Virus record (IMG/VR): IMGVR_UViG_3300027782_000095
Span: 1 to 58,920 of that record
DNA length: 58,920 bases
Source: a virus
Taxonomy: Duplodnaviria > Caudoviricetes
Direction: 5' to 3' (one strand)
Under the pieces are notes generated by a model, which did not search any database, was not told the DNA's origin, and saw nothing but the letters and a program-made list of their open reading frames with translations. How positions within the stretch are numbered: the first letter of the stretch is position 1; every line of letters begins with the position of its first letter. The position numbers and the translations under genes were made by a program. Below are positions 1,195 to 32,853 of this stretch, in pieces.

Positions 1195-1225
1195 AGGGCT
1201 TAAAATTTAAGGGTTAATAAAATTA

Positions 1226-2497
1226 TTATCGTTTAAAAATATTTGTTTGTCTAGTTATTTTTTTAGGCTTATTTTGTTCTTCTTCTTCGTGATATGTAGA
1301 AATATTCTTACGAGCTTGTTCTGTCTTTAATTGTCTTACAGTTTGTTCAACTGCTGCATTCTTACCCTGTTTTTGTAAAGATTGACGATAGTCATCAGGG
1401 CTAGAAAGTAACCAAAGAGCTTCAGCAATTAATTCATAATTGGGCTCTACATATTGATACTTCTCTAAAAGATGTCCTAACAAATTAGTAGGTCTACCTG
1501 ATACAGAAGGATATTGAGGTTGAACAAGTCCTGAATAAAGAAATGCTTGAGTTTTTTTATCAAGTTTCATTCCACTTATCTCTCCAGGTCTAAGTGCTTC
1601 AAATACGTTTTGTATATATGCACTAGCTGCTTGTTCTTGTTGTTGTCTACGTTGCTCTTGTTCAGCAAGTTGTGCATGAACAATTTGTTCTTGCATTGCA
1701 TCCAACTTTGGTTTGTATTGTTTAGCTTTCTTTTCAAGAGATCCAAGATCTCTAAGAGTGGCTATTTCTTCTTCGATATCTTCAGCATCTTCTCCACGAG
1801 CTTGTAAAAAGTTTCTTATAATAAGCTCTTGATCATAATCATCATTAGGATCAAGCTCTCTCACTTGTTCTGTTTGAGCTAAAGCTTGAAATAGTCCTTT
1901 AAGATCTTGACCACCATCTGCTACATACTTAGCAGCATATTGAAGTTCTTCTGGAAGACTCTTAAAAAATTCAGCAGGTGTTTGAGAAGCCACTTCACTT
2001 TTAAGATTATCAACATTAGCTTTCCATAGTTCATCTACATCTTTTTCAGATAGATTTCCTAAGTATTCATCTAACGATTGTTTCTTTTCATCATAGTCAT
2101 CAAATGCAAACATTTCATTTGATTCTATTCTTTTCTTTAGAAACTCAACCAATCCAGACTTTTCTGTTTTTGGTCTTCCTTTTTTAGGAGTATCATCTTC
2201 TTCTAGCTCATCTGTAATGTCGCCATCCAAAATGTCACTTAGAATTTCTTTAGCTTGTTCTTTAGATACTAGCTTTTCTTTAATATCACTTTCCTCGTCA
2301 CCTGTTAAAGGTTTATCAAGAGCAGAAGGTTTATCTAAGAAAGTAAGATCTGTTGTGTTTTTACTGAATAGATTTGGTTTTGCTTCTTCTTTAGAAGGAG
2401 TGACAATACTGTCAGCACCAGGAGCTCCTAACCAGCTATCAATATCTACATCTATTTGTTGTACAGAAGTCTGTACATTTGTTTGATTTTCAGCCAT
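1226..2497 (-). CDS. Acidic coiled-coil head protein / putative scaffold
   Basis: 423 aa, very D/E/Q-rich and helical; lies between portal and major capsid. Confidence 0.6.
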   Translation of the reverse strand: MAENQTNVQTSVQQIDVDIDSWLGAPGADSIVTPSKEEAKPNLFSKNTTDLTFLDKPSALDKPLTGDEESDIKEKLVSKEQAKEILSDILDGDITDELEEDDTPKKGRPKTEKSGLVEFLKKRIESNEMFAFDDYDEKKQSLDEYLGNLSEKDVDELWKANVDNLKSEVASQTPAEFFKSLPEELQYAAKYVADGGQDLKGLFQALAQTEQVRELDPNDDYDQELIIRNFLQARGEDAEDIEEEIATLRDLGSLEKKAKQYKPKLDAMQEQIVHAQLAEQEQRRQQQEQAASAYIQNVFEALRPGEISGMKLDKKTQAFLYSGLVQPQYPSVSGRPTNLLGHLLEKYQYVEPNYELIAEALWLLSSPDDYRQSLQKQGKNAAVEQTVRQLKTEQARKNISTYHEEEEQNKPKKITRQTNIFKR

Positions 2498-2533
2498 AAT
2501 ATATATTGGTTTTTTATGTGTATCTCTACATTA

Positions 2534-2542
2534 ATAATATAC
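2534..2542 (-). promoter_or_regulatory. Putative phage promoter core GTATATTAT (scaffold/capsid operon)
   Basis: The same 9-mer occurs ahead of other operons (12975-12983 minus, 39153-39161 minus, 19829-19837 plus). Confidence 0.5.
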
Positions 2543-2594
2543 TAATTTAAACTCTAAAAATTTACAAAATCTTTTTAAATCACACCTAAGCTAT

Positions 2595-2614
2595 GGATAA
2601 TAGAGCTATAACTA
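2595..2614 (-). repeat. 20-bp repeat TAGTTATAGCTCTATTATCC, copy 1
   Basis: Exact reverse complement of 19791-19810. Confidence 0.85.
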
Positions 2615-2616
2615 TT

Positions 2617-5364: not shown

Positions 5365-5369
5365 GATTA

Positions 5370-5519
5370 TTAATTAGTTAGGGTAATATATTCATAGTTA
5401 ACATAGGTGACATCTCTTGGTCCTGTTGTATTTGTAAATATAAAAGTTCCAGCATTCCAATCTGTAATAGAAATTGTTATGCTATCTGATGTTTTTAAAG
5501 GGACTTCTTGGTTGTGCAT
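5370..5519 (-). CDS. Small hypothetical protein (49 aa) overlapping the terL 3' end
   Basis: Manual translation MHNQEVPLKTSDSITISITDWNAGTFIFTNTTGPRDVTYVNYEYITLTN; fills the terL-portal gap. Confidence 0.45.
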   Translation of the reverse strand: MHNQEVPLKTSDSITISITDWNAGTFIFTNTTGPRDVTYVNYEYITLTN

Positions 5520-7689: not shown

Positions 7690-7957
7690 GTGTAATATCT
7701 TCTATAATATCTATGTCACCTTTACTCTTATGTAAAAGGTCTAATAATGTATTTAGATGTTTACTTCTAAGAACACCTGCATGTTTATAATCATTCCAAT
7801 ACTCATTGTATGTTTCACGTGGAACAGCTGCCCACTGTTCATTAGTTGAATTATAATGAAATACCCAATCTTCTAAATAAGCTAAATCAGCTGGTTTATA
7901 ATAAGGTTCTTCGTCTTGATAAACTTCTTGTTTCATATTATTTGTTTTATTGATCAT
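7673..7957 (-). CDS. Hypothetical protein
   Basis: 94 aa ORF overlapping both neighbours. Confidence 0.6.
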   Translation of the reverse strand: MINKTNNMKQEVYQDEEPYYKPADLAYLEDWVFHYNSTNEQWAAVPRETYNEYWNDYKHAGVLRSKHLNTLLDLLHKSKGDIDIIEDITRGEIK

Positions 7958-8459
7958 ATGCTAAGTTTTGTCCACCTCTTACAGATGATTGTTGTTCTTC
8001 CATAAGATCTTTATACACTCCTTTAAATGATTGTCTCACTGCATCATACTTCTCTGCCATTCTGAGAAGTGCAGGACTAGATCCATCTCTACCAAATGTA
8101 AGTTGTTCTGTTGCCATACTTTTAGCCATATTATCTAAAAATATTTTTATCCCAAGATATGCTCTGTATGTAGGAGTTTGATAGAGTTGTTCACATCTCT
8201 TTAACCCAGCCACTATAAGATCATCATCAACACTAAAGTCAGCATCTATTTCTTTTAAGATGATACTTTCTTTATCTGTTTCTTGTATATCAAAGAAAGG
8301 ATTCATATCTGGATTGGGGCAAGTCATATAAAAAAAGTAGGCATATATAGTGAGATGATCATCTGGGTGAACATCCATTATATCTTTAAGAAACTTTAAT
8401 GTGTAACAGTGTTCACTAGGAATCACTTTACCATTACTTACATCAAATAATCTAATCAT
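7947..8459 (-). CDS. Helical protein upstream of terL, possible terminase small subunit
   Basis: 170 aa, helical C-terminus ending ...VRGG...; assignment is positional only. Confidence 0.4.
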   Translation of the reverse strand: MIRLFDVSNGKVIPSEHCYTLKFLKDIMDVHPDDHLTIYAYFFYMTCPNPDMNPFFDIQETDKESIILKEIDADFSVDDDLIVAGLKRCEQLYQTPTYRAYLGIKIFLDNMAKSMATEQLTFGRDGSSPALLRMAEKYDAVRQSFKGVYKDLMEEQQSSVRGGQNLAYDQ

Positions 8460-8730
8460 TTTTTTCTTCTTTTAAAAAGTCCATGTTACGTTTTGCATTA
8501 GGTGGAATCTTTTTTACTATTTCATCTAGTCTTTCACAATCCCATCCTTCTCCATTCATTGGGTTTCCCCATATCCTTACATCATCAGAATAAAAATGTT
8601 TAATAACACCTTTGGGTAGTCTCACTACCCACACAGTGTTTATATTAATTCCATAATCTATAATAAACATGGCTTCTCCATCACCTAATGGTGTATGGAC
8701 TTCTACTGTTGGGTTTAGTTGTAATATCAT
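8452..8730 (-). CDS. Hypothetical protein
   Basis: 92 aa in a tightly packed operon. Confidence 0.6.
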   Translation of the reverse strand: MILQLNPTVEVHTPLGDGEAMFIIDYGININTVWVVRLPKGVIKHFYSDDVRIWGNPMNGEGWDCERLDEIVKKIPPNAKRNMDFLKEEKND

Positions 8731-8731
8731 T

Positions 8732-8968
8732 TTATCCTAATAAACTTCTATTTTGTAATAAATCTCTTTTAGCTGATGTCATAGACATGCCTCTTAAAAA
8801 GGCTTGGTTTTTTAATTCATTATCATGTATCCATGATATGATGTTCTTTCTTTTATGGTCTTCACTCATATAGCATTTTCTTGCTGTGCCAGCAGGAACA
8901 ATGTCCCCATTAACATACAAGTCTAGTATTTCTGCTATTGTAAGTATATTATTTTCCTGAGTATTCAT
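8732..8968 (-). CDS. Hypothetical protein
   Basis: 78 aa in a tightly packed operon. Confidence 0.5.
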   Translation of the reverse strand: MNTQENNILTIAEILDLYVNGDIVPAGTARKCYMSEDHKRKNIISWIHDNELKNQAFLRGMSMTSAKRDLLQNRSLLG

Positions 8969-9602
8969 AGTCTAAAATTTTACCCACTAGATCACTCCTG
9001 TGGTTATGTTTTAATTTAATCCATTTAATTCCATCAATCTTTTTAGAAAGATCAATAGCATAACTAAGTCCATTAAAGTCATCTTTAATATCCTTTTGTT
9101 CATTATCGCCATTGATTATAATCCTACCATTCTTTCCAAGACGTGTAAGTAGTGCAAGCATTTCTGCCTTAGTCAAATTTTGGGCTTCTTCCACCACAAG
9201 TACATCGTCAATAGTTTTGCCACGTATAAACTGTACAGGTAGTGCAATGACTTTTTTATCTTTGATAAGATCATCAATTTTAGTTTTATTATAACACTTA
9301 ATAAGGTTTTCTTGAAAGGCTTCCAAATATGGGTTGAACTTTTCATCCAAGCTCCCAGGCAAAAAGCCAAGAGAATGACCAACTTCAACAGCTGCACGTG
9401 TAACATATATGTTGTCATATTCTTTTTTGAATATAAAGTCAAGAGCTGTTTGAGCTGATACAAGACTCTTACCACAGCCTGCTCTACCTGTTATCACCAC
9501 TATTTGATTTTCTCTTATTAGTCTTTTAGCTTCTTTCTGTTCATCATTAAGAGTGATTTCATATTTAATTTCACTTTTTAAAACTTTTTTCTTTTGTTCC
9601 AT
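8949..9602 (-). CDS. phoH: PhoH-family ATPase
   Basis: GRAGCGKS, LGFLPG, FIRGKT, VEEAQN, LTRLG, GDNEQKD and HRS motifs. Confidence 0.93.
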   Translation of the reverse strand: MEQKKKVLKSEIKYEITLNDEQKEAKRLIRENQIVVITGRAGCGKSLVSAQTALDFIFKKEYDNIYVTRAAVEVGHSLGFLPGSLDEKFNPYLEAFQENLIKCYNKTKIDDLIKDKKVIALPVQFIRGKTIDDVLVVEEAQNLTKAEMLALLTRLGKNGRIIINGDNEQKDIKDDFNGLSYAIDLSKKIDGIKWIKLKHNHRSDLVGKILDYEYSGK

Positions 9603-10429
9603 TAATGTGATTTTAATTTATGTTTGTTATCTTCTAACCAGTGTATAAGAGCTATTGCTTCTTCTTTTAAATAGGGAAGGTCATATTGTATTAGATCAAG
9701 GACAATAGGATTACCATCAGTATCAAGAGCAGATATAGGATTGTCAAACCTATCGCGTCCTGCCTCCTCAAACAATATGTGATGAATTGTGAGAACACCA
9801 GGATTAAGTTTAGGGTTATGCTTAAGAATAATAAACAAATACATACTAAGCTGAAGAGCATAGTGATTAAGATGACAATCATCAAGATGACTGAGAGGAT
9901 AAGACATTTTTTGTGTCTTTCCTTCCCAATTAGTAAATCCTTCAACTTTAATTTCTTTATTAGTTTTATAATCTGTTATATGAACTTTACCATCTACCAC
10001 TTCCACAAGATCAGACTGACCACATACACCTGCTGAACGAAGGTACACCATGTGTTCTGGATAGATGCCTTCTTTAAGCTTTTGTTCTGGAGAATATTTT
10101 ATTCCTTCCACTTCAATAGGTTTAAACACTGGCACTGTTACACCATGTCTTTCCATATCTCCTATTTGACACAAGTCATTCTCTCTTTGATTATGATACC
10201 ATGTGCCAAGATCTGTAGCACGTTTAGCTTCTGACTTCCAAGCTTCTTTAATTTCTGCAGGTGTCATTCCATACCACTTACTCTTTTTACTTTTAGCCAC
10301 TTTAGATGCTATAGTTTCTGCATCAAATGGTTGTTTAAATTGTGATATTAAACTAGTGACACTTAACCAATCAATACCATCTTCACTTGTATATTTGTGA
10401 TTGTGAGGTGTAAATTTTAATCCACTCAT
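9602..10429 (-). CDS. PD-(D/E)XK exonuclease
   Basis: SVTSLI, GTWYH, GQSDLV...ITDYKT and YALQLSMY motifs; probable start MSGLKF at 10429. Confidence 0.8.
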   Translation of the reverse strand: MSGLKFTPHNHKYTSEDGIDWLSVTSLISQFKQPFDAETIASKVAKSKKSKWYGMTPAEIKEAWKSEAKRATDLGTWYHNQRENDLCQIGDMERHGVTVPVFKPIEVEGIKYSPEQKLKEGIYPEHMVYLRSAGVCGQSDLVEVVDGKVHITDYKTNKEIKVEGFTNWEGKTQKMSYPLSHLDDCHLNHYALQLSMYLFIILKHNPKLNPGVLTIHHILFEEAGRDRFDNPISALDTDGNPIVLDLIQYDLPYLKEEAIALIHWLEDNKHKLKSH

Positions 10430-10755
10430 AGTCCTAGCTTTTGATTTAATTGATTTTCTTCTTCTTCTGTTAGTTCTGCTTTCCATTTACCAAGAGGACA
10501 ATCTGAACTAAGTGCTCTTGTTTTTAAAGATAGAGAACATCCACATCCTCCTAGTTTTTCATTGCAACAAGGATGTGTTCCTTTAACAAAACACCCTTCA
10601 CCTTGCACATCTAGAAGTTCACAACTTAGGCAAATCTGCATTCTTTGTTGTGCAATCTCTTCTACATCTTCTTTCTTAAAAACACTATTCGTTATCCCCT
10701 CTATTATCTGACCCTTGTTCTTCCATATCTTTATTATGTTTTCTTTTAGACTCAT
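10426..10755 (-). CDS. Cys-rich Zn-binding protein
   Basis: CxxC...C...CC...CGC..K...CPxGKW pattern. Confidence 0.6.
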   Translation of the reverse strand: MSLKENIIKIWKNKGQIIEGITNSVFKKEDVEEIAQQRMQICLSCELLDVQGEGCFVKGTHPCCNEKLGGCGCSLSLKTRALSSDCPLGKWKAELTEEEENQLNQKLGL

Positions 10756-11116
10756 CTTTGTGCAGTTTAATAAAATCTTTACGTTGGTTTTCTTCTTGAA
10801 TTATATTTCTTAAATTTCTTAAATCAAATAAATTCTCAGCTATTTTAAAACGAGCAGTCATTTGCTGCATGCCTTTTTGTTTATTGGTCTCTTCCCATTT
10901 CTCAAGACTATTTATCTTATCTTCTAATTTCCAATGTTTGATGGTAAAGTCCCCAAGATTGGTGAGATGTATTCTTTGATGTTTTAAAGACGATAGACTT
11001 TTTCTCACCTCCTCCCAATAAAAAGATGTTACATCTTCTATTATATTTTCCCCAATGCCAGTTATTCTACTAGTATCAGATATTAATGTTTTAGCTTTTT
11101 TAGGATGTAGCAACAC
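10685..11116 (-). CDS. HU/IHF-like DNA-binding protein
   Basis: Helical N-terminus followed by IHLTNLGDFTI, resembling the IHF arm motif; IHF-like genes are typical of crAss-like late modules. Confidence 0.55.
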   Translation of the reverse strand: MLLHPKKAKTLISDTSRITGIGENIIEDVTSFYWEEVRKSLSSLKHQRIHLTNLGDFTIKHWKLEDKINSLEKWEETNKQKGMQQMTARFKIAENLFDLRNLRNIIQEENQRKDFIKLHKDESKRKHNKDMEEQGSDNRGDNE

Positions 11117-11465
11117 TTAAAAATTTAAAATCTAAAAGAATATTACCATCACTATGAATATTTAAAATAGGATTAAGAACTATTTTCTTTTTATTTTTTC
11201 CTTCTTTTATAATCATACCTTTCTTTTCCAACTTAGCTAAACAATTACGTGCACTTTGTGGAGAAGAAAATATCTTCTTTTCAAATATTACATTACAAAA
11301 GTTGGTGAGTTCTTGCTCTCCTTCAATAGCTAAATAAGTGAGACAATCAAGTTCAGCATTGCTTAATTGTACATATGTTAAATAGCAATGCGTAATAAGC
11401 TGGTATTTTACAATACCCCACTTATCCATCTTTACTTTCTTATCCACTTGGTTTACAATAGCCAT
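11100..11465 (-). CDS. Winged-HTH DNA-binding protein
   Basis: LSNAELDCL...SPQSARNCLAKLEKKGMI pattern. Confidence 0.55.
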   Translation of the reverse strand: MAIVNQVDKKVKMDKWGIVKYQLITHCYLTYVQLSNAELDCLTYLAIEGEQELTNFCNVIFEKKIFSSPQSARNCLAKLEKKGMIIKEGKNKKKIVLNPILNIHSDGNILLDFKFLSVATS

Positions 11466-11905
11466 TATAATTCTAATTTAAAACTTATGTATTCTTGCTT
11501 TGTGCCAGTCCAATCTTTATAAGATAGGATTGGAATGGCTCCAAAGTTTTCAAATATTTTCCAACAAGCACCTATACAGGCCTCTCCTGTAAGAACACTA
11601 AAGCCAGCTTCTAAACCCCACTCTATAGTCAGCTTAACTAAGTCATGACCATATCCCTGTCCTTTTTGTGTAGGAATAACAGTGAGACTATTCATATGTA
11701 ATACATTAGATGATTTCCAAGATAGAATGATTTCTCCCACTATCTCTTTTCTTTCATCTTTAAGCCATATGCCTTGGATGTTATTTTCTTCCTCTAGCAT
11801 GTATGTCTTATAACTATTATCCTTTCTTAGTTCTCTAGGTTGTTCTTTTTCAAACTTAAAGGTTTCTTTATAATCTTTAAGTTTATATAAAGGGGTTGTT
11901 GGCAT
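11465..11905 (-). CDS. GNAT-family acetyltransferase
   Basis: Motif A, LTVIPTQKGQGYGHDLV; C-terminal FENFG. Confidence 0.8.
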   Translation of the reverse strand: MPTTPLYKLKDYKETFKFEKEQPRELRKDNSYKTYMLEEENNIQGIWLKDERKEIVGEIILSWKSSNVLHMNSLTVIPTQKGQGYGHDLVKLTIEWGLEAGFSVLTGEACIGACWKIFENFGAIPILSYKDWTGTKQEYISFKLEL

Positions 11906-11908
11906 TGA

Positions 11909-12265
11909 TTACTTTTTAAGACCTCTTGATTTAGTCTGTTCTTCTTCTACAGGTGGAGCAGGAATAGGTTCTTCAGATCTTAACACTTGATCACCCACTT
12001 TCAATCCTGCTTCCACTAATTCTGGGTTGGCATCAAGATCTTCTTGTGTAAGATTGTAAGGTGTTCCTTGTGGTTGTGTTTGGCTAGGATTGGTGGCATT
12101 ACCTATAAAAGATAGAGCCTTGATTTCCTCAGCTCTAGCCACAGCTAATCTAGTGTTTAATTCTTGAAGCTTTAATTGAACCTCTTTCACTTCAATTTGT
12201 TCTTCCATAAAAGCAATCACTTGTTCTTTACTTGGAGCTTGTTGCTCATTTACTTGTTCTGACAT
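11909..12265 (-). CDS. Hypothetical coiled-coil protein
   Basis: 118 aa; contains LTQEDLDANPELVEAGLKVGD. Confidence 0.6.
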   Translation of the reverse strand: MSEQVNEQQAPSKEQVIAFMEEQIEVKEVQLKLQELNTRLAVARAEEIKALSFIGNATNPSQTQPQGTPYNLTQEDLDANPELVEAGLKVGDQVLRSEEPIPAPPVEEEQTKSRGLKK

Positions 12266-12738: not shown

Positions 12739-12971
12739 TATAGTTGTTGTTTAGATTTACGTGATTGATTGTATTGATTGTAATTCATATACCTACTCCT
12801 GTTATTAGCCTTTATCATCTGCATAGCCATAAGTCTATAAGCTATCCCATCTCTTACATCCACCACAGGTACTTGTACTTCCTGACCCCATTTGTTTCTA
12901 CCCACCCTATAATGAGAAAGAAGTTCTTCTTCCCCCTCTTCAGTTAGTTTTCTAAATTCTGTCTGGTTCAT
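12738..12971 (-). CDS. Hypothetical protein, first gene of the leftward operon
   Basis: 77 aa; GTATATTAT motif immediately upstream. Confidence 0.55.
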   Translation of the reverse strand: MNQTEFRKLTEEGEEELLSHYRVGRNKWGQEVQVPVVDVRDGIAYRLMAMQMIKANNRSRYMNYNQYNQSRKSKQQL

Positions 12972-12974
12972 AAT

Positions 12975-12983
12975 ATAATATAC
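12975..12983 (-). promoter_or_regulatory. Putative phage promoter core GTATATTAT (packaging operon)
   Basis: Preceded by AAATTT...AGTTTAAA, as at the 2534 copy. Confidence 0.5.
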
Positions 12984-13183
12984 TTTAAATGTTTAAACTT
13001 AACAAATTTAATTATATATTATATACACCCCTATAATTAAATATCCCCACTTTGTTAATACATCTTACATATCCCCCCACTATTGTGTTAGAAGATGTAA
13101 TGGGGTATTCATGAGCAACCCCTACTCTGTTTTGGGGAGTGTGTGTACCCCCTCAACAATGTCACCTAAAACTCAAATATAAA

Positions 13184-13501
13184 ATGGAACAGTCAACAAA
13201 CAAACCAACAGTTCAATCTTTTGACGCTATCATCTTGACTATCGATGACGAAGCTCGTCCAAAGTCAAATGGCAAGCACTTCCTTCTTTGCGAAGTGGAG
13301 TTCAAAAGTGGTGCTTTATTAGGGAAGAAGTTCTTCGCTAATCGTACATTAGGCCCAAACAAAACAGAGATTTCTGTGGGACAAGATGTACAAGTGTTAT
13401 TGTCTTTTGCTGAAAGAGATGGCGTGAAGCGTCCTTTCTTTGAGATCAGTACCAGTCGTGTGGCAAGTGCAGAAGAGATTATGGATTTATTGGGTGCGTA
13501 A
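13184..13501 (+). CDS. First early protein, beta-rich (possible OB-fold)
   Basis: Probable start MEQSTNK at 13184 after an A-rich leader. Confidence 0.65.
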   Translation: MEQSTNKPTVQSFDAIILTIDDEARPKSNGKHFLLCEVEFKSGALLGKKFFANRTLGPNKTEISVGQDVQVLLSFAERDGVKRPFFEISTSRVASAEEIMDLLGA

Positions 13502-13631
13502 TCCCATTGTAACAGTATGCATAGTAATATGTGCATACTGTTATTTTTTAGTTTACACCATTGGCTCTGTCCAATGTTATTATATATTGTTTTTTAGTTT
13601 ACACTATTCACTCACAATCTAAAACTTATCT

Positions 13632-13724
13632 ATGTTAGCAACTATCTTAGCTAATGGAACTGTTGTAATCGTTAAGTCTCTTGTAGATGTAATGACTACA
13701 GCAGAAGATGTACGCAATGCGTAA
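13632..13724 (+). CDS. Small peptide (30 aa)
   Basis: Manual translation MLATILANGTVVIVKSLVDVMTTAEDVRNA, with an A-rich leader. Confidence 0.4.
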   Translation: MLATILANGTVVIVKSLVDVMTTAEDVRNA

Positions 13725-13885
13725 TACATCTCATCCAGAGAGAGCTCATCTCTGTTAAACCACTGAGTATCAACTAATTGTGTGTGTGTTTATCTATGTG
13801 GTAGACACACACTCTTTATTCTTTCATCTAATTCAAATAGCACTAATATAGACCACTTTTGGTGGCATTAGATAGCTATAATATA

Positions 13886-14071
13886 TGTTTAATGCATCAT
13901 CTCTACTTCACAAGGGTAGACAAATGTAATATATTGTAACCAGGTAAATAAGCATATTGCTAAATAACCTGAATAATTATGATAAGATAGAAATAGGTTA
14001 TAAGGTATGCTAGCAATACTGAATATAAAACATTATAGTTCCTATTATTACATTTGAATGCAGAGTGGACA
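13886..14071 (+). ncRNA. Twister-like self-cleaving ribozyme with expanded P5
   Basis: P1 TGTT/GACA; U^AA at 13890-13892; P2 TGCA/TGCA; P4 TCTAC/GTAGA; L4 (T)TCACAAGG; T1 CAC/GTG after conserved GA; P5 CAAATGTAATA/TATTACATTTG. T2 is UC/GG rather than GC/GC and L4 has one extra U. Confidence 0.65.
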
Positions 14072-14448
14072 ATTCTATTCTAGGTTATTGGTAATCCTTA
14101 GAAATCATTCAGTTTAATCCAGTATGTCTGTTTAATGCAATCTGGTAATTATGACATACACACACTTAATTCCCTGGAAAGGGTTGTACAGCTTGTAGGC
14201 CATTGTACGTAATGTAAAACAACCTTCTGAATGATGCTAACAGCATTAGATCTAAGCACATCTATAAACTGCTCATTTTATTTAACCACACTATTAGTCG
14301 TATAAAGGACTGATATGCAACACAGATGTCTTCTGGAGTGGTGTTATTATATAGGATTTCTAGCAGTTAGACTTCATTTAACTGTGGCTTTAGTGGTGAT
14401 GCATTAACCACTGTTTTTATTTCCCCAAACATTAAAAATTATTTACAA

Positions 14449-14694
14449 ATGAAAATGGAACTTACACGTAATGCTGACAACAAGGTTGTTGGCTACAAAC
14501 TAATTAAAGAAGAACATGACGATCTAGAAACCTTTGAAAGGGTGAGAGACATGTACTTTTGGGCTTTGGATCAAGAAGTATTGGTGTATGATGGTAGAAA
14601 GAGTGATGATGATGATAATACAACAGAACTCAACTTTGCTACTAAAGCACACCATAAAGAAAAAATGGACAAAATCAATTCTCCAATCATTTAA
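14449..14694 (+). CDS. Hypothetical early protein
   Basis: 81 aa ORF with an A-rich leader. Confidence 0.65.
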   Translation: MKMELTRNADNKVVGYKLIKEEHDDLETFERVRDMYFWALDQEVLVYDGRKSDDDDNTTELNFATKAHHKEKMDKINSPII

Positions 14695-14705
14695 ATTCAT
14701 TTAAC

Positions 14706-14927
14706 ATGAAATCTCTTATCGCAATCCTAATCTATTTAGGAACATTTATGGGTCTTTTTTTACTTATGTCTCTTATTGGCTTGTTATGGATGGATAGTTA
14801 TCATTCTATTATCTCTGACAATCCATGGTTTGTGTTATACACTATATTCTTTGGTTGGTGGATGGCTATGCTACCCACGCGAGAATATTATATAAAACAT
14901 CATCATTATTTCAAAGAAGCTTTTTAA
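14706..14927 (+). CDS. Small membrane protein (2 TM)
   Basis: Two hydrophobic segments. Confidence 0.65.
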   Translation: MKSLIAILIYLGTFMGLFLLMSLIGLLWMDSYHSIISDNPWFVLYTIFFGWWMAMLPTREYYIKHHHYFKEAF

Positions 14928-14984
14928 ATTGAATGCTAGTGTAATAGCTAGCATTCTTATTTTCTCATTTAATTATTTAAACAC

Positions 14985-15323
14985 ATGAAAAAGTTATTAA
15001 TTATCAAATCATTAATCATTATTGTTGTTATTGCTATTATAGCATTTACTACATCTTGTTCTAAGCCTAATCCTTATGATTGTCCACCAGCTGTAAATGC
15101 AAATAAGCAAATTCATACAGAAGATATGGAAAGTCTTGTTAAGACAAGCCAGCTCGTTTCTATTGCAATAGCTGATACAGTGGATGGTAGAGTGACATAC
15201 AATGTTTCTTTTCCTGATGGCACTGTATTAGACTCTATGTATGCTGAAGAGATCGCTAATGGTCTTATTACAGGCAAATGGGATTATAATGAAGATTTAG
15301 CAATCATCACTCACATCTTCTAA
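14985..15323 (+). CDS. Putative lipoprotein
   Basis: MKK, hydrophobic stretch and FTTSC lipobox. Confidence 0.65.
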   Translation: MKKLLIIKSLIIIVVIAIIAFTTSCSKPNPYDCPPAVNANKQIHTEDMESLVKTSQLVSIAIADTVDGRVTYNVSFPDGTVLDSMYAEEIANGLITGKWDYNEDLAIITHIF

Positions 15324-15367
15324 ATTCTTACTCTTTTAACAATTATTTTTCACTAAATCAAACCAAA

Positions 15368-15520
15368 ATGAAAACAATTATCGTAGCTATTACAGCAGTG
15401 TTATTCTCTTGTAACAGCTCAACTAACACAACCTCTCCTTCTATGGATAGTGTTAAAGTGGCTAACGACACAACAGTTACTCATTGTGGTGCTATTCCTA
15501 AAAAGGACAGCACGAAATAA
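15368..15520 (+). CDS. Small putative lipoprotein (50 aa)
   Basis: Manual translation MKTIIVAITAVLFSCNSSTNTTSPSMDSVKVAND...; LFSC lipobox. Confidence 0.55.
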   Translation: MKTIIVAITAVLFSCNSSTNTTSPSMDSVKVANDTTVTHCGAIPKKDSTK

Positions 15521-15635
15521 ATAAGTGAGGGCTCATCTGTGCACTATTATCATACTAGTATATTATAGTATACTATGTTTATAGGTCATTAGTGAGCTCT
15601 CCCTATTTTATGGTTTGATTGATAATCAATTAGTT

Positions 15636-15872
15636 ATGAAAAAACAGCTATTATGGAGTTTTTGGCTATTAATGAGCATATTATGGTGGTTATCTCTATC
15701 CATATATATCATTGTATTTAAACTACCATCTCAATTACATCAACTGGGGCAAGAACATCCTTGGTTTATTGTAAATCTATTGGCAAGCATAGTAAATATA
15801 ATTGCTTGTGTATACATAGGCTCAATCATGCCATCAACAAATAAAAATCATTACACTCCAACTAAATTTTAA
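15636..15872 (+). CDS. Small membrane protein (2 TM)
   Basis: Probable start MKKQLLW; two hydrophobic segments. Confidence 0.5.
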   Translation: MKKQLLWSFWLLMSILWWLSLSIYIIVFKLPSQLHQLGQEHPWFIVNLLASIVNIIACVYIGSIMPSTNKNHYTPTKF

Positions 15873-15875
15873 AAA

Positions 15876-16136
15876 ATGAAAGTATCTAAAGAACTATTTG
15901 TTATGTTGGCAAAGGCAATGTCAACAGATGACGTTATAGAAAAAATGGAAGAAACCATTAATAAATACAAAGAAGCAAAAATGTTGAATATTGATCTTGA
16001 TGACGCATTAGAAAGCTTACATATTGCTACACATCTATTCATTATGAACTCTATGGAGAAAAGTCCAGATGAAATCATAAAAGAAATGAACAAAGTGGAT
16101 CAACGTGTTAAATTCTTTGACACAGAAGTAAACTAA
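15876..16136 (+). CDS. Hypothetical helical protein
   Basis: 86 aa ORF. Confidence 0.6.
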   Translation: MKVSKELFVMLAKAMSTDDVIEKMEETINKYKEAKMLNIDLDDALESLHIATHLFIMNSMEKSPDEIIKEMNKVDQRVKFFDTEVN

Positions 16137-16142
16137 TTATGG

Positions 16143-16349
16143 ATGGGGAAAGCCTGGCGATCATATCAAAGGGCTACCTATTTAAATTTTATAGTTATGA
16201 TAATGTGTTTAGTAAATTCAATAACTAAAAAACGTATGCTTGTCACTAGAGTTACATTAGACTATTTTATTTGTGATAGAGTGAATTATATATCTAAAAA
16301 AGATGTAGCACTTGGCAAATATTATATCGAAATGCTAGTAAAAGCTTAA
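16143..16349 (+). CDS. Hypothetical protein (true start may be downstream)
   Basis: Short ORF in early-operon orientation. Confidence 0.35.
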   Translation: MGKAWRSYQRATYLNFIVMIMCLVNSITKKRMLVTRVTLDYFICDRVNYISKKDVALGKYYIEMLVKA

Positions 16350-16577
16350 AATACGAGGCAAGTAGTTACTGCCTAATGTGCCTTACATGATGGGAAACAG
16401 CTTGACAACTGTATAGGTTTGCTCGTATAACAAAGTTATACCAAGATGATAACTTTAACTACAATCTATTCCTAACCTCTACCTGTGAAGAACTAGATGA
16501 GGGACAGCCACAACACTTGTAAGCTGGATAAAACAGAGTGTCACTTTTTATTATTTAAACAATTAAAATTTATAAAC

Positions 16578-16730
16578 GTGAAAAAATTAGAAACATTATT
16601 AGCAGGAATAATAGTAGGTGGATTTATATGCATGCTATTGTTTGCAATGACGTCTTGTAGAACAGGATATGGCTGTAAAGGAAATCAAAGCTGGGGTAAG
16701 ATGGAAAGACGTATTAACTCACCTTATTAA
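16578..16730 (+). CDS. Small putative lipoprotein
   Basis: GTG start, KK, hydrophobic stretch and MTSC lipobox. Confidence 0.5.
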   Translation: MKKLETLLAGIIVGGFICMLLFAMTSCRTGYGCKGNQSWGKMERRINSPY

Positions 16731-16739
16731 ACTACTATT

Positions 16740-16898
16740 ATGATAAATTTAGTAAAAGAACCAATGCCAATAAAAATAGAGGCAGATGGTAAGAAATTAT
16801 GGATTGTTCCATCTAATAAAGATGGAGTGGATTATAAAATATGGGCACAATCTTATGCTGAGGCATTACAATTGCTACCCATGATTGAATCATTCTAA
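16740..16898 (+). CDS. Small hypothetical protein (52 aa)
   Basis: Manual translation MINLVKEPMPIKIEADGKKLWIVP...LPMIESF; fills the gap between neighbours. Confidence 0.5.
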   Translation: MINLVKEPMPIKIEADGKKLWIVPSNKDGVDYKIWAQSYAEALQLLPMIESF

Positions 16899-16903
16899 AT
16901 ATT

Positions 16904-17086
16904 ATGAAAATCATGATTTACATTAAAACATTTTTATTTGGTATTAGAGCTCAAGGAGAAAAACTTCCTGAGCCTAAACTACGACCAGAAAGACCATATG
17001 ATGCACTAGATTGTACTAAATGGTGTCAAGAATTCAAATTTGGTAATAAATATGGGCATAGAGGCTCATTCTATAAAAGAAGGTGA
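16904..17086 (+). CDS. Hypothetical protein
   Basis: 60 aa ORF. Confidence 0.5.
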   Translation: MKIMIYIKTFLFGIRAQGEKLPEPKLRPERPYDALDCTKWCQEFKFGNKYGHRGSFYKRR

Positions 17087-17381
17087 GGCTAGCACAAGCT
17101 AGTACCTATGATGTGTCATTACATCTATAGGATTTAGGGGCACGTTCTTGCCCTAACCAATCCAACTCAGGATACTGATCAACCATGAACGTGTGTATAG
17201 ACGAGAATCTATTCTAATCAGGGATGAAAAAATAACCTGTAATTGTGATCAGCCTATTACACCCTTGTTACGTTAGGACTTTGTCCTGTATCTACCATAT
17301 GTAGAGCTATTGCAGCTGCTACAATGACTAGTAGTGATACACCCAGGGTGGGTGAAGCCCTGTTTTTTTAAATCTTTTATT

Positions 17382-17624
17382 ATGGATAATTGTAAAGAAT
17401 GTTTACAACTAGAAACTATGTTTGATACAATAGGTAAAACATATTATAGAATGGATGAAGAAAAAGTTTTGTGTTATAGACATTGGCATCAAGGAAATAG
17501 ACCTAAATTTGTACATAAAGGAGACTATTATGAAATATTTTCTAATCAATCAATAGCAAAAGCTAAAGGTATAAACAAAGATGAAAAATTTAAGGCTCCA
17601 AAGAGGATTTGGTATGGTATCTAA
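17382..17624 (+). CDS. Hypothetical protein with CxxC...CxxH (possible Zn site)
   Basis: Probable start MDNCKEC. Confidence 0.5.
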   Translation: MDNCKECLQLETMFDTIGKTYYRMDEEKVLCYRHWHQGNRPKFVHKGDYYEIFSNQSIAKAKGINKDEKFKAPKRIWYGI

Positions 17625-17862
17625 TACTGTTATTAGAGATCCTGATATTTCTTTAAGAGATAAAGCTATTTATGCTCATTTATGTTCTTATGCAGATGGT
17701 AAAACTAATGAACTCACTGTAGGTATTGACAGAATTGCTTCTGAATGTGGTGTAGACCACTCTACAGTGAAACGAAGTATTAAAACACTCATAGATAAGA
17801 AAGTGCTTACAAGAATTAAAAGAGGAATGAATGTTACATCAATAACAATTTTATTAAAATAA
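17581..17862 (+). CDS. Winged-HTH protein (replication-initiator-like N-terminal HTH)
   Basis: VSNTVIRDPDISLRDKAIYAHLCSYA...IASECGVDHSTVKRSIKTL. Confidence 0.75.
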   Translation: MKNLRLQRGFGMVSNTVIRDPDISLRDKAIYAHLCSYADGKTNELTVGIDRIASECGVDHSTVKRSIKTLIDKKVLTRIKRGMNVTSITILLK

Positions 17863-18013
17863 TTAGTACGATTAAGAGTGCCATACTAGTACAGAAGTGA
17901 GAAGCAAGTACGTACTGTTTATATGTGACTGTTCCCTGCATTGCTAGGACGTTCAGCTTATAACTTAAGGTCAGAGCATTCTCTAAATTAGAAAATATGT
18001 CCTCTTAATGTAC

Positions 18014-18021
18014 TATATTTG
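18014..18021 (+). promoter_or_regulatory. Bacteroidota sigma-A -7 element TATATTTG
   Basis: Matches TAnnTTTG; lies 11 nt before the tRNA-like/tmRNA unit. Confidence 0.55.
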
Positions 18022-18032
18022 TAAAAATATTT

Positions 18033-18106
18033 AGCTAAGTAGCTCCAACATAATAGAGCCCTTACTTGTAGTAGGGAGCGTATGGGAGAATGACCCATCT
18101 TAGTTA
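18033..18106 (+). tRNA. Atypical tRNA-Thr(UGU)-like cloverleaf
   Basis: Acceptor AGCTAAG/CTTAGTT, D stem GCTC/GAGC, anticodon stem CCTTA/TAGGG with loop CT-TGT-AG, T stem ATGGG/CCCAT. T loop AGAATGA is non-canonical; no encoded CCA. Confidence 0.55.
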
Positions 18107-18112
18107 ATTTAT

Positions 18113-18599
18113 GGGCCTGCCTGGTTTTGACAGCAACAAGCAGGTAGTATCACACGCAAGGCGTAGTCAGTAGCCAAACAAACTGATTAACACTTAAAGG
18201 ACAACACAACAGTTGAACTTTCTGATATGACCTTTGATAGCTTAATGGCTTTCATTGGTGCTGACGAAGCTATTGCAGCCTAGTCTCAGACGAGTAGTTA
18301 TACTTTGGAACAGAAAATAGCAAGCGTAAAGACATAGGGTCTTCCTGTGACACTGACCATCCAAGACTATATGATGTAAAAAGAAAGCACAGTCCCAAAT
18401 TTCCTGGATTATTAGGACGTTAAAAACATTAGAAGCCAGGTGGTGGAATCTAACCTATGAGTTAGCCCTATTAGGGTGCAAAAGTCAGCTTAAACACTGA
18501 CTTTAGTACATGAGTTGTCAGCTCATACCTTGACTAAGCGTGTAAAAATGGTATTATTGGCAAATTGTTTGGACAGGGGTTCGAATCCCCTCAGGTCCA
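18113..18599 (+). ncRNA. ssrA: tmRNA
   Basis: Acceptor GGGCCTG/CAGGTCC-A with G3.U70; 5' TGGTTTTGAC; 3' GGAC-AGGGG-TTCGAAT-CCCCT. Tag ORF 18200-18283, after TTAAAG, encodes DNTTVELSDMTFDSLMAFIGADEAIAA*. Confidence 0.92.
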
Positions 18600-18656
18600 C
18601 TGATCGAAAGATTAAGGGAAAACTAAAGGGTTTTTCATAGGATTTGGATTGATAAC

Positions 18657-18683
18657 GCCCTTCGTTTCTACGAGGGGTTTTTT
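18657..18683 (+). terminator. Intrinsic terminator after tmRNA
   Basis: CCCTTCG/CGAGGGG hairpin plus T-tract. Confidence 0.7.
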
Positions 18684-18734
18684 ATATCTTATTTGCCAGC
18701 TTAAACCTGATTTTAAACCTATAAAACATAATAA

Positions 18735-19082
18735 ATGACAATGTACAGAGTAATAAATACTTTTGATTCTAAGAGTGAAAATAAAGAAGTGCATGAATAT
18801 ACTATCATGCAGTATACAAATGACAATGGTCATGAAGTGACAGCTCTTCACAGAAGTCATGATGACTGCTGGTCTGAAAATAACAGAGGTAAAGAAGTAA
18901 TTAAAGTTATAGACACAGGAGACATGGTTATATTTCCTAAAAAAGAATTTGCAGGAGATGTTGATTATGATAAATTAGCAGAATTATACATTCTATTACA
19001 TTTTATAAATAAAACAGAACGTATGCCTATGTACGAAGGTAAAATAGAAGAAATTATACCAACAAAAACTATTGAAATATGA
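18735..19082 (+). CDS. Hypothetical protein
   Basis: 115 aa ORF. Confidence 0.65.
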   Translation: MTMYRVINTFDSKSENKEVHEYTIMQYTNDNGHEVTALHRSHDDCWSENNRGKEVIKVIDTGDMVIFPKKEFAGDVDYDKLAELYILLHFINKTERMPMYEGKIEEIIPTKTIEI

Positions 19083-19633
19083 GTCCAGAAAAGTATCAAG
19101 AAGTTAAAGAAATTTATATAGACCATATACAAGGGTATATGAAAGAAGTGGGTAATTTATTTCCACACATTACAATATTTGCTGAACATAAGAATAAAAA
19201 AGAAAATGATAAACCAGCTATTATTCATATTCCTATAGATGATCAATATATGGAATCAGATGAAACAAAAGATGAATTTATTAATAACGTGGTACCTGAT
19301 GTGTTTAAAACAATTAAAAATGATTTTATTCCTTCAGCTGTAGTGTGGGGAACAGAAGCATGGGTGAGAACTGTTCATAAAGAAGAAGTGATAAATGATG
19401 AAATAGGTGACTATAAGAAAATACCAATTAAAAAAGAAGTGGTATTTGTTTCTATAGAAACTAAAGATCATCAAGAAAGCATTATTTATGACATTAAAAG
19501 AAAAGGTAAACAAGTAAACTCTGATGGAGATTTATCAGATATTATTGAACTTATTGAAGCTGATGAATCTGGTAGTATGAATAATACTAGTGGTAGATTT
19601 TCAGGTTTATTTAAATTATTAGAAAATGCTTAA
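19079..19633 (+). CDS. Hypothetical protein
   Basis: 184 aa; ATGA-type overlap; WGTEAW...EVVFVSIET. Confidence 0.65.
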   Translation: MSPEKYQEVKEIYIDHIQGYMKEVGNLFPHITIFAEHKNKKENDKPAIIHIPIDDQYMESDETKDEFINNVVPDVFKTIKNDFIPSAVVWGTEAWVRTVHKEEVINDEIGDYKKIPIKKEVVFVSIETKDHQESIIYDIKRKGKQVNSDGDLSDIIELIEADESGSMNNTSGRFSGLFKLLENA

Positions 19634-22837: not shown

Positions 22838-22930
22838 ATGTCCAGTTTATTGCACAAAAAACTTGACAAGAATGCATGAAATTTTAGGAAAAATTCATGC
22901 ATTTTTTATTAATAACTAATTGATAATCAA

Positions 22931-23122
22931 ATGGATGAAGAAAAAGCTATTGTAAAATTTAATAATGGCAATTTAGCATTGCTTTGTAGTGATTGTTACA
23001 CTATTATTAAAATAGGTAGAGACTTCACTAAAGAAGAACTTGAGTTTACAATGGGTAGTGATAAAAATCATTTACCTCCACAATATTGTGAAAAATGTAA
23101 AAATAAAACAAATAATGTTTGA
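22931..23122 (+). CDS. Small Zn-ribbon protein
   Basis: CSDC...CEKC. Confidence 0.6.
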   Translation: MDEEKAIVKFNNGNLALLCSDCYTIIKIGRDFTKEELEFTMGSDKNHLPPQYCEKCKNKTNNV

Positions 23123-32660: not shown

Positions 32661-32707
32661 CTACCAACTGAAGGGAGTTGTTGATAGAATATTACGAGAG
32701 GGTTGTA

Positions 32708-32830: not shown

Positions 32831-32853
32831 TTATTTCAATATTAAATTATTCT

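Follow-up and report, generated by a model that had tools for sequence, protein, structure and literature searches.

The tRNA gene cluster of phage T4 yields small stable RNAs that are co-transcribed and processed with the phage tRNAs, and the RNAs of the locus described here can be likened to them in general terms. Phages may also encode tmRNA (ssrA). Genes for tmRNA occur in 402 of 18,146 phage genomes (PMC9004378), with examples in the OM43 phage Melnitz, subcluster C1 mycobacteriophages and huge phages, and the roles proposed for them are to keep ribosomes working or to tag proteins (PMC9004378, PMC7162821, PMC13014143). ROOL and GOLLD are structured RNAs of phages and prophages that are often near tRNA islands and sometimes covalently beside tRNAs (PMC12286853). 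In the crAss-like Cellulophaga phage phi14:2, long intergenic regions in the early arm yield abundant RNAs whose levels exceed those of most genes and which last throughout infection (bioRxiv 10.1101/2020.03.07.982082).

The stretch of DNA analysed here (the window, 58,920 nucleotides) comes from a freshwater phage of ~125 kb, the contig being 46% complete. Portal, TerL and PolA families were detected, and the TerL has cultured relatives only among crAss-like phages, those of Bacteroides, Flavobacterium and Cellulophaga, at ~25% identity; the phage is probably distantly related to crAss-like phages, with a host among the Bacteroidota. With coding sequence defined by mechanical ORFs of at least 40 aa, 41.4% of 13500-18700 is non-coding versus 3.8% elsewhere in the window, and this is the top 5.2-kb span of the window for gap content, so that the gap-rich 5 kb noticed in the preliminary description stands out as described. 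Intrinsic-terminator-like sites are more frequent than expected (9 found versus 2.8 +/- 1.7), with 7/9 on the + strand; sigma-70-like promoter matches are not enriched (32 versus 32.9 expected). We regard this region as probably an accessory island of stable-RNA genes with a tmRNA, a tRNA-shaped element (E2) and several folded RNAs, among which micro-ORFs and an HTH_36 gene are interspersed (Table 1). The island lies in the small-gene arm of the phage, and that arm is probably early; early expression would fit its position beside the divergent region 12972-13138 and its likeness to phi14:2.

Table 1. Features of the island, with positions in the window.
Feature	Positions	Strand	Description or basis
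30-aa micro-ORF in gap A	13632..13724	+	peptide kept in L141, L060, L102
A1	13781..13881	+	13-bp terminator-like hairpin (13782-13812), then conserved segment; terminator scan
A2, conserved multi-helix RNA	14055..14274	+	core 14075-14241
A3	14350..14425	+	hairpin, terminator-like hairpin and T-run; two-sequence fold
C, ~200-nt structured RNA	16350..16552	+	7 helices; covariation
D, ~250-290-nt structured RNA	17082..17370	+	7 helices; covariation
HTH_36 DNA-binding protein gene	17581..17862	+	Pfam PF13730, E 2.4e-11
E1, rod-like structured element	17863..18022	+	starts directly after HTH_36 stop codon
TATATTTG box	18014..18021	+	octamer upstream of E2 and tmRNA; read in sequence
E2, tRNA-shaped cloverleaf	18033..18105	+	layout read from sequence
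One-piece tmRNA gene	18113..18602	+	RF00023, full model
tmRNA tag reading frame	18200..18283	+	27 codons + TAG; tag DNTTVELSDMTFDSLMAFIGADEAIAA
Intrinsic terminator after tmRNA	18657..18685	+	9-bp stem, 5 GC pairs, then T-run

The tmRNA, already read in the preliminary description, is confirmed by RF00023, the sole Rfam 15 family above gathering in a search of the whole window (61.2 bits, gathering score 47, E 1.6e-21). The 490-nt gene has the G3-U pair in the acceptor stem, the T-arm GGGGTTCGAATCCCC and a discriminator A at 18599; CCA is not encoded. Homologues in relatives score 67-88 bits, and the tag frame is kept at the peptide level in 7/7 phage tmRNAs translated, all of them ending in A-(I/V)-A-A and then a stop. 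The homologous frame was read by ARAGORN in the nearest relative (L131), which is its one tmRNA call among 11 sequences (10 loci matched by Infernal plus the window); over the window it reported 0 tRNA and 0 tmRNA genes and so missed the gene matched by RF00023. The tmRNA is carried by 3/20 and 5/22 related records. It is missing from 7/7 near-complete relatives examined, which indicates that it is dispensable.

Known phage ssrA genes and the island share a complete tmRNA, a lytic-type phage, accessory presence within the group and an early or small-gene setting. The tmRNA here is in one piece, whereas that of Melnitz is in two, and it departs from known phage ssrA in its 490-nt length, its 27-residue tag and the tRNA-shaped leader upstream, as well as in having no riboswitch seen and no SmpB gene found within the window, which belongs to a contig 46% complete. 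It also sits in a crAss-like lineage, for which the accessible text of the phi14:2 paper mentions tmRNA only as a prediction method (bioRxiv 10.1101/2020.03.07.982082). The program that found 1/11 of the tmRNAs tried here, ARAGORN, is the one used in published phage tmRNA surveys.

The element E2 lies directly ahead of the tmRNA, with 7 nt between the two. It has stems of 7, 4, 5 and 5 bp and an anticodon-like loop of 7 nt, and canonical D and T loops are missing. In the six sequences from which the structure was both derived and scored, 93.7% of cells are paired versus 29-52% with partners slid, and 5/21 pairs are compensatory, 3 of these in the acceptor-like stem. Given the missing D and T loops and the 6-nt anticodon-like loop in one relative (G031), a decoding role is unlikely on the sequence. 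The tRNA-like folds of the preliminary description thus hold as cloverleaf geometry in E2, and not as genuine tRNAs, since ARAGORN found none and the Rfam tRNA model had no match in 12800-19200 at E<=10. The octamer TATATTTG is found at the equivalent place in the window and in G021, G031 and L168, with a variant in L141. The Bacteroidota -7 promoter consensus is TAnnTTTG, and by this consensus we take the box to be a candidate -7 element of that type.

Gap A is of mixed content. The micro-ORF at 13632-13724 shows synonymous-type divergence with the protein conserved in three relatives, so this part of the gap is coding and not RNA. A1 shares 73-76% identity with L086/L003 and L141, a weak comparison of three sequences in which the flanks do not align. 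For A2, RNAalifold on six distinct sequences gave 25 pairs, 11 of them compensatory, with 95.9% of cells paired versus 40-50% slid, structure and score coming from the same alignment. A3, 84% identical to L141:4493-4559 (two sequences, weak), could be where an A2-A3 transcript ends. A motif is repeated at 13541-13567 and 13587-13613, and gap B (15521-15614) contains an imperfect palindrome flanking an AT-rich spacer.

Element C ends in a hairpin with a large conserved loop and a T-run. Its covariance model (R1) has one match in the window and 36 full-length matches overall, 30 of them distinct, in which 93.4% of cells are paired versus 78.1% in shuffled controls (0/500 shuffles reach it, a significance overstated by kinship within the sequence set) and 35-50% slid. 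In the R1-fitted alignment, a procedure biased towards the structure, 24/36 pairs are compensatory; an independent MAFFT alignment of 8 sequences (A4) gave 21/36. No Rfam 15 family matches C, and among species-representative bacterial genomes its signature motif had two hits, both rejected by the model, leaving no true C. C is present in unrelated phage contigs as well, where it is often fused behind tRNAs. Among 20 C-bearing records, the TerL is 69-85% identical to that of the window in five, 29-32% in another five and undetected in ten, which include a 310-kb record with two C copies and a 69.5-kb record that is complete. Of 34 C-bearing loci, 11 have a tRNA within 2.5 kb, and it adjoins the C 5' end in three (L135, L152, L154); in L137 and L163 a sub-threshold tRNA-like match is in this place. 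C shares the tRNA-adjoining context of ROOL and GOLLD, but C and D are far smaller and have no Rfam match to either. C would be a mobile free-standing RNA, trans-acting on some partner.

Element D likewise has one match in the window with its own model (R2), 21 matches in all and 16 distinct, and no Rfam 15 family. A terminator hairpin whose loop is conserved forms its 3' end. It is 87.5% identical to G001, versus 66-79% in the flanking genes. In the 16 distinct sequences 92.1% of cells are paired, versus 80.9% shuffled, a control that again overstates significance in related sequences, and 25-47% slid; 22/40 pairs are compensatory in the model-fitted alignment, which favours the structure, and an independent MAFFT alignment of 8 sequences was made here as well. 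A U-G pair is kept in D columns 341-350 (15/15) and in C columns 305-324 (30/30). Both RNAs are read in the + sense, because the opposite strand would have A-C mismatches in place of such pairs. For E1, 33 pairs with 11 compensatory and 96.2% paired versus 32-53% slid were obtained from the same four sequences that gave the structure, one of them the tmRNA-less G001.

The HTH_36 gene is the protein anchor of this block, since relatives have D upstream and E1 or the tmRNA downstream. D is within ~900 nt of it in 7 distinct loci and at 35-1600 nt in further loci, and in 7/7 HTH_36 loci with a tmRNA, 830-1450 nt separate the HTH_36 stop from the tmRNA 3' end downstream. D and E1, which always flank this gene, could be its leader and trailer or else free RNAs. 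It is from this arrangement that a cis-regulatory explanation draws its force, in which the folded elements are leaders or trailers of adjacent small genes: D a terminator-containing leader (attenuator or riboswitch-like) of an HTH_36 operon, E1 its 3' UTR, A2/A3 a leader for the ORF at 14449, and C one for a small membrane-protein ORF starting near 16579. D is upstream of HTH_36 at every locus with both located, a fixed place that suits a cis-acting leader equally well; its terminator is 35 nt from the gene in L118 and ~100 nt in L101, E1 directly follows the HTH_36 stop even in G001, and the terminator of every element just precedes an ORF. However, the D-bearing contigs are all relatives, so that the synteny is not independent, and a different, variable gene lies between D and HTH_36 in 6/7 distinct loci. 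C, for its part, is found within arrays of tRNAs and in unrelated phages, where it has a tRNA directly before it and no downstream gene in common, and none of the riboswitch or leader families in Rfam matches. We consider the cis explanation unlikely.

Compensatory changes keep helices in four gaps (A2, C, D and E1), in agreement with the multi-stem elements of the preliminary description, which had named a lack of covariation as one half of what would speak against it; covariation is present, and strongly so in C and D. Its idea of an RNA-gene island that includes a translation-rescue RNA holds, with a real tmRNA and covariation-supported RNAs in other gaps. Single-sequence folding energies are ordinary (z = -1.95 for D, -0.16 for C, -1.04 for E and -1.78 for A), so the support for these RNAs comes from the comparison of relatives and not from thermodynamics. 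In one lake metatranscriptome, contigs with 0 differences were found at 13400-13474, 14145-14336 (overlapping A2) and 18138-18403 (in the tmRNA), and nowhere else in 5.4 kb; they give a weak hint of transcription, as strand, ends and level are not readable and DNA carry-over is possible.

The preliminary description went further and proposed a host-takeover or anti-defence cassette, in which ribozyme cutting, by a twister-like element, frees the RNAs, and the tmRNA and tRNA mimics counter RNA-cleaving defences, which would mean replacing host RNAs cut by defence nucleases. The island, the tmRNA and the tRNA-shaped element are all real, and phage tRNAs have been proposed to evade tRNA-targeting defences (PMC10264068). 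On the other hand, the six Rfam matches in 12800-19200 at E<=10 are the tmRNA and five sub-threshold, unrelated families: no twister, twister-sister, hammerhead, pistol, hatchet or HDV-like model matched, which leaves both the twister-like element and the release of RNAs by ribozyme cutting unsupported. The three similar pseudoknots are likewise unsupported: no three-copy structured repeat was found, and the models of C and D give a single match each in the window. E2, with no canonical D or T loop and with 6 nt in the anticodon-like loop of G031, is unlikely to decode, RNA ends are accounted for by terminators and tRNA-type junctions, and no element was linked here to any defence system. This proposal seems to us very improbable. 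The last alternative, DNA-level elements (origins, HTH_36/RepL-like iterons, packaging sites or promoters) with incidental helices, is hardly credible, since the weak RepL-like match of HTH_36 (E 0.0059, below cut-off), the gap B palindrome with its AT-rich spacer and the repeated motif stand against pairing kept by compensatory changes, many G-U pairs valid on the + strand only, a hairpin and T-run at element ends, and C within tRNA transcription units.

For the island of stable-RNA genes, the nearest parallels would be phage tRNA/tmRNA islands with ROOL or GOLLD and the early RNAs of phi14:2, which it resembles. The island has long gaps between small, probably early genes in common with phi14:2, as well as a crAss-like lineage and, probably, a Bacteroidota host, and the annotated phi14:2 gap g004-g006 is ~1.7 kb. 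Positions 1-12000 of phi14:2 gave best scores of 9.7 bits with R1 and 8.1 bits with R2, that is, no detectable homology, and have no annotated tmRNA; with no homologue of C or D in that early region, the precedent is an analogy only.

The island RNAs would be made as discrete molecules, with 3' ends set by intrinsic terminators like those seen downstream of the tmRNA and at A3, C and D, and with 5' ends from promoters or from the tRNA-processing enzymes of the host. The 5' end of the tmRNA would be generated by RNase P, cleavage around E2 would be due to this enzyme or to RNase Z, and where a tRNA immediately precedes C in other phages, that tRNA would mark the cleavage site. As E2 adjoins the tmRNA and tRNAs adjoin C elsewhere, tRNA-type processing with terminators is the simpler account of the RNA ends, and a self-cleaving ribozyme is neither needed nor seen. 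A2, C, D and E1 look like new RNA families, the tmRNA being of a known kind. The latter, with its G3-U pair, would be charged by the host AlaRS and would partner the host SmpB. During infection it would rescue ribosomes stuck on broken mRNAs and add to the nascent chains a 27-residue degron that is specific to the phage and has AIAA at its end.

The region 13500-18700 holds a complete tmRNA and conserved, folded RNAs on the + strand. The preliminary description had called this region rich in gaps, and with mechanical ORFs of at least 40 aa counted as coding, 41.4% of it was non-coding versus 3.8% elsewhere, the top value of any 5.2-kb span of the window. The divergent intergenic region 12972-13138 adjoins the start of the island and is followed by about 12 small ORFs on the + strand. 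Nine terminator-like sites were found versus 2.8 +/- 1.7 expected, seven of them on the + strand. Sigma-70-like promoter matches were not enriched (32 versus 32.9 expected), and the fold energies and z-scores of the single sequence were ordinary and uninformative. Further ORF-free gaps of 200-400 nt at 22838-23039, 39249-39615 and 32622-33018 gave no match with the covariance models of elements C and D (R1 and R2) or with Rfam at gathering.

Gaps, RNA elements and small reading frames of the island (lettered elements are RNA elements or candidates lying in the gaps)
Feature	Coordinates	Strand	Description
Gap A	13502-14448
Micro-ORF	13632-13724	+	30 aa; inside gap A; peptide kept in relatives L141, L060 and L102
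A1	in gap A		terminator hairpin with conserved tail
A2	14055-14274		compensatory changes in 11 of 25 pairs (6 distinct sequences)
A3	in gap A		conserved hairpin and terminator
Gap B	15521-15614
Gap C	16350 to about 16578
C	16350-16552	+	covariance model R1; compensatory pairs; 3' hairpin and T-run
Gap D	17087-17382
D	17082-17370	+	covariance model R2; compensatory pairs; terminator hairpin
Gap E plus tmRNA	17863-18734
E1	17863-18022		begins at the HTH_36 stop; compensatory changes in 11 of 33 pairs (4 sequences)
E2	18033-18105		7 nt upstream of the tmRNA; exact cloverleaf proportions
tmRNA tag frame	18200-18283	+	27 codons, C-terminal AIAA, then TAG

The window is a single IMG/VR virus record of 58,920 bp, 46% complete according to CheckV, that encodes a portal, a large terminase (TerL) and a family-A DNA polymerase (PHROGs). 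At least 599 IMG/VR stretches match its TerL; the 80 kept of these are 74-88% identical to it, and several of them lie on records 119-129 kb long. The relatives of this TerL in cultured or named phages reach around 25% identity and belong to crAss-like phages of Bacteroides, Flavobacterium and Cellulophaga. The runs containing the window DNA carry freshwater or lake metagenome labels. Because of the TerL relatives, the record sizes and these labels, we read the window as a piece of a freshwater phage of about 125 kb that is distantly crAss-like, and its host is probably a member of the Bacteroidota. Two very large ORFs of 1159 aa and at least 1222 aa, the second running off the contig end, were seen at 51741-58919 (-); the sole match of the second is a Dda-like helicase, and by their position the two might be the giant virion proteins of crAss-like phages. 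No match to 13000-19200 was obtained by blastn in 50,697 phage records, and nucleotide similarity to 80 TerL-anchored loci was almost nil across the region except for short patches, which against this background pointed to conserved elements.

The tmRNA noticed in the preliminary description is genuine by its Rfam match: RF00023 covers 18113-18602 (+) with 61.2 bits against a gathering threshold of 47 (E 1.6e-21) and spans model positions 1-374 of 374. The 7-bp acceptor stem pairs GGGCCTG with CAGGTCC and places G3 opposite T/U (G3-U70; cmscan alignment and sequence), the canonical T-arm is GGGGTTCGAATCCCC, and the discriminator A lies at 18599, with CCA not encoded. The pseudoknot region (PK1-PK4) was aligned by cmscan with low posterior probability and with insertions of 97 and 57 nt. 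The tags of all seven translated phage tmRNAs have 25-27 residues and end in A-(I/V)-A-A, a likeness at the peptide level that speaks for use of the tag, and ARAGORN called a homologous tag frame in the nearest relative, L131. No SmpB (PF01668) was found in the window, a contig 46% complete.

The tmRNA is accessory: 3 of the 20 TerL relatives and 5 of another 22 records carry it, and none of the seven records among these with a completeness of at least 90% does. Where a locus anchored on the HTH_36 gene (17581-17862, +, in the window) has a tmRNA, the two genes share a strand and the tmRNA 3' end lies 830-1450 nt past the HTH_36 stop (7/7). In some relatives the tmRNA sits amid tRNA genes, for example in L084 of record G015 (tRNA-Leu, tRNA-Ala and two more Rfam tRNA matches), L082 of record G009 (tRNA-Ile) and L141 (tRNA-Arg); the window has no tRNAs. 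Phage tmRNAs are already known: one survey gives 402 of 18,146 phage genomes as ARAGORN-detected (PMC9004378), and tmRNAs are also recorded in huge phages (PMC7162821). The window tmRNA is another member of this group, and it is noteworthy for its lineage, its size, its long tag, its tRNA-shaped leader and its escape from ARAGORN. That program called a tmRNA in one of 11 sequences (the window and 10 loci with an Infernal match, one of them sub-threshold) and none in the window. ARAGORN-based surveys overlook most tmRNAs of this lineage, and with one detection in 11 the published phage tmRNA frequencies may be underestimates.

Multi-stem elements had also been proposed for the gaps, and helices with compensatory changes, that is, changes on both sides of a pair, were found in C and D and likewise, on fewer sequences, in A2 and E1. 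For C, RNAalifold gave 36 pairs on an 8-sequence MAFFT alignment, 21 of them with compensatory changes. The conserved 3' motif of C was found in 34 IMG/VR stretches, and R1 subsequently gave full-length matches to 36 copies at 106-217 bits, which represent 30 distinct sequences. On the alignment fitted to R1, 93.4% of the cells are paired versus 78.1% after shuffling (0 of 500 shuffles as high) and 35-50% when the pairing partners were slid along, and 24 of the 36 pairs changed on both sides. The + strand is fixed by one invariant U-G pair (30/30) and frequent G-U pairs. The loop of the 3' hairpin that precedes the T-run is conserved and 17-18 nt long. When R1 was run on 92 sources (1.28 Mb), just two fragments with E=0.47 were obtained beyond the 8 distinct training members, and there was no second copy of C in the window.

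A tRNA lies within 2.5 kb of C in 11 of the 34 C-bearing loci; it abuts the 5' end of C directly in three (L135, L152 and L154), as does a sub-threshold tRNA-like match in two others (L137 and L163). The abutting Rfam tRNA match in L154, 940-1062 (-), takes 123 nt for a 71-position model, which suggests an insertion or intron in the tRNA. Among 20 C-bearing records, TerL is 69-85% identical in five, 29-32% identical in five and not detected in ten, the last including one record of 310 kb (93% complete) and one complete record of 69.5 kb. The former (G043, 310,691 bp), in which no homologue of the window TerL is detectable, carries two C copies 1.7 kb apart, at 1492-1680 and 3234-3425 (-) of its locus L158. 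Among species-representative bacterial genomes none of the motif-carrying contigs held a true member of C; two motif matches in bacterial genome contigs are due to chance and are rejected by R1. Because of the tRNA contexts, the spread over TerL groups and the lack of a true bacterial member, C appears to be a mobile, phage-specific RNA gene. It would be common to unrelated freshwater phages, from crAss-like ones with TerL identities of 85% to 29% to the 310-kb phage with its two copies and the complete 69.5-kb one.

Compared with the complete relative G001, the window is most conserved in D, with 87.5% identity versus 66-79% in the neighbouring genes. The invariant 20-nt motif of D was found in 10 stretches, a MAFFT alignment of 8 sequences yielded 40 pairs with compensatory changes in 13, and R2 had 21 matches, of which 16 are distinct. 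Pairing reached 92.1% of the cells versus 80.9% shuffled and 25-47% slid, with 22 of the 40 pairs compensatory. The weakest extra match of R2, L067 (13.1 bits, E 0.061), is probably no member of D and was retained in alignment A7. At its 5' end D forms a junction of several helices that is closed by an invariant long-range helix; a variable middle part follows, and then a terminator hairpin whose loop is conserved. At 17103-17165 the relatives in runs X2 and X9 carry 29 other letters in place of a 61-nt hairpin, a replacement that fits the shorter D variant of L095, L098 and others; this part of D is a variable, expandable arm. D stands upstream of the HTH_36 gene in every locus showing both and was found in 11 of 25 HTH_36-bearing records; 3 of the remaining 14 are truncated upstream of HTH_36. 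A cis-regulatory reading, which concerns chiefly D and E1, is unlikely in our estimate.

A2, E1 and E2 are probable structured elements, as modelled on their alignments, and are not proven because the sequences are few and the structures were drawn from the same alignments. In A2, 95.9% of the cells are paired versus 40-50% slid, and in E1, which was found also in the tmRNA-less G001, 96.2% versus 32-53%. Of the tRNA-like folds of the preliminary description, one is borne out in its geometry: E2 has a 7-bp acceptor, a 4-bp D, a 5-bp anticodon and a 5-bp T stem with an anticodon loop of 7 nt. No tRNA was called by ARAGORN in the window or matched by RF00005 in 12800-19200 (E<=10). The D-like loop CAACATAATA and the T-like loop AGAATGA of E2 are not canonical (D-loop GG, T-loop TTC). 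Over six sequences 93.7% of E2 is paired and 5 of 21 pairs are compensatory, three of them in the acceptor-like stem; the anticodon-like loop differs in G031/L169. Ahead of E2, a TATATTTG box at 18014-18021 is present in the window, G021, G031 and L168, with a variant in L141; it resembles the Bacteroidota -7 promoter element and is a candidate for one.

The remaining gaps contain smaller features. The 30-aa ORF in gap A is likely a micro-protein gene, judging by its kept peptide, and a conserved hairpin at about 13737-13757 lies 3' of it. A direct repeat (13541-13567 and 13587-13613, +, 85% identical) includes TTTTTTAGTTTACAC, each copy being immediately preceded by a terminator-like hairpin (13509-13544 and 13559-13576); the repeat may be a repeated promoter or protein-binding site. 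Gap B is an imperfect palindrome flanking an AT-rich spacer; a few relatives have it, in one orientation or the other, with about 76% conservation, and it may act as a bidirectional terminator or as a DNA site. A similar segment was seen beside C, in opposite orientation, in L033/L138/L149, and also in L141. Relatives in the DNA runs X2, X5 and X9 have indels, for example with joints 17103>17165 and 16185>16352, which show modular variation and are uninformative on function. The 68-aa ORF 16143-16349 (+) immediately 5' of C is such an indel, as X5 and X9 contigs join 16185 to 16352, and 16165-16360 is covered by short contigs of high depth. Module borders and ends of RNA elements coincide, the 16352 joint being the start of C.

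The preliminary description had also seen a twister-like element and three similar pseudoknots, neither of which was recovered. No ribozyme family was among the 6 Rfam matches at E<=10 in 12800-19200, no self-cleaving ribozyme was found at gathering across the whole window, and neither R1 and R2 nor a repeat search of the window gave such a triplet. The model proposed there, of an anti-defence cassette in which ribozyme cutting releases stable RNAs and the tmRNA and tRNA mimic counter RNA-cleaving defences, is without support and very improbable. That the conserved stretches act as DNA elements is likewise without support and scarcely credible. A2, C, D and E1 had no match in Rfam 15 at E<=10 in the window or E<=1 in the relatives searched, where the matches obtained were the tmRNA, tRNAs and sub-threshold noise elsewhere. 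ROOL and GOLLD were not matched in the window region, nor in five C-bearing and two D-bearing loci (E<=1). Readings of C and D motifs as RNase P RNA, SRP RNA, 6S RNA, T-box, hammerhead or C/D-box-like were dropped for want of Rfam support. Neither a description of C, D, A2 or E1 nor a report of noncoding RNAs in freshwater Crassvirales was found in the literature searched; "undescribed" here means not found in that literature, because it did not cover supplements and most subscription journals.

In the lake-water metatranscriptome X7, zero-difference contigs were found at 13400-13474, 14145-14336 (inside A2/A3) and 18138-18403 (tmRNA) and none elsewhere in 13400-18800, the uncovered parts being uninformative. 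These contigs are a weak hint of transcription, as they do not show strand or ends and may stem from DNA carry-over. In the crAss-like phage phi14:2, two long intergenic regions among the early genes are reported to give more transcript than most genes, from the earliest time point on, and this transcription persists (bioRxiv 10.1101/2020.03.07.982082); that early region has no homologue of C or D (R1, R2). Phage tRNA/tmRNA islands are known to hold large RNAs of unassigned function. ROOL and GOLLD are examples, found in phage genomes close to tRNA islands (PMC12286853), and the context of the window island resembles theirs.

We consider it very likely that a real tmRNA and at least two real structured RNA families are present, and we favour as probable the overall reading of an island of discrete, stable, folded RNAs together with a tmRNA; the specific functional roles of these RNAs are doubtful. 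Intrinsic termination and host tRNA-processing enzymes would free each RNA as a separate, stable molecule, the processing sites presumably being the tRNA-shaped junctions, E2 before the tmRNA and the tRNAs before C. With host AlaRS, SmpB and EF-Tu, the tmRNA would recycle those ribosomes that stall on damaged mRNA in the course of infection and append a long phage-specific degron. C would work in trans, and D and E1 would act as free RNAs or else as leader and trailer to HTH_36. C could be a new functional RNA class acting on host translation or RNA-processing machinery, and the block of D, HTH_36, E1, E2 and tmRNA could be a coordinated RNA module. Our tentative proposal is that undescribed phage RNA families are represented by C and D, probably also by A2 and E1, that C is mobile and tRNA-linked, and that this block could serve translation takeover.

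A very abundant uncultured freshwater crAss-like lineage, with at least 599 TerL-matching stretches in IMG/VR, bears several smaller, well-supported and uncatalogued structured RNAs. With C moving between unrelated phages and fused to tRNAs, they are testable candidates for new RNA functions in Bacteroidota phage infection, and the island RNAs may account for the abundant early non-coding RNAs of crAss-like phi14:2.
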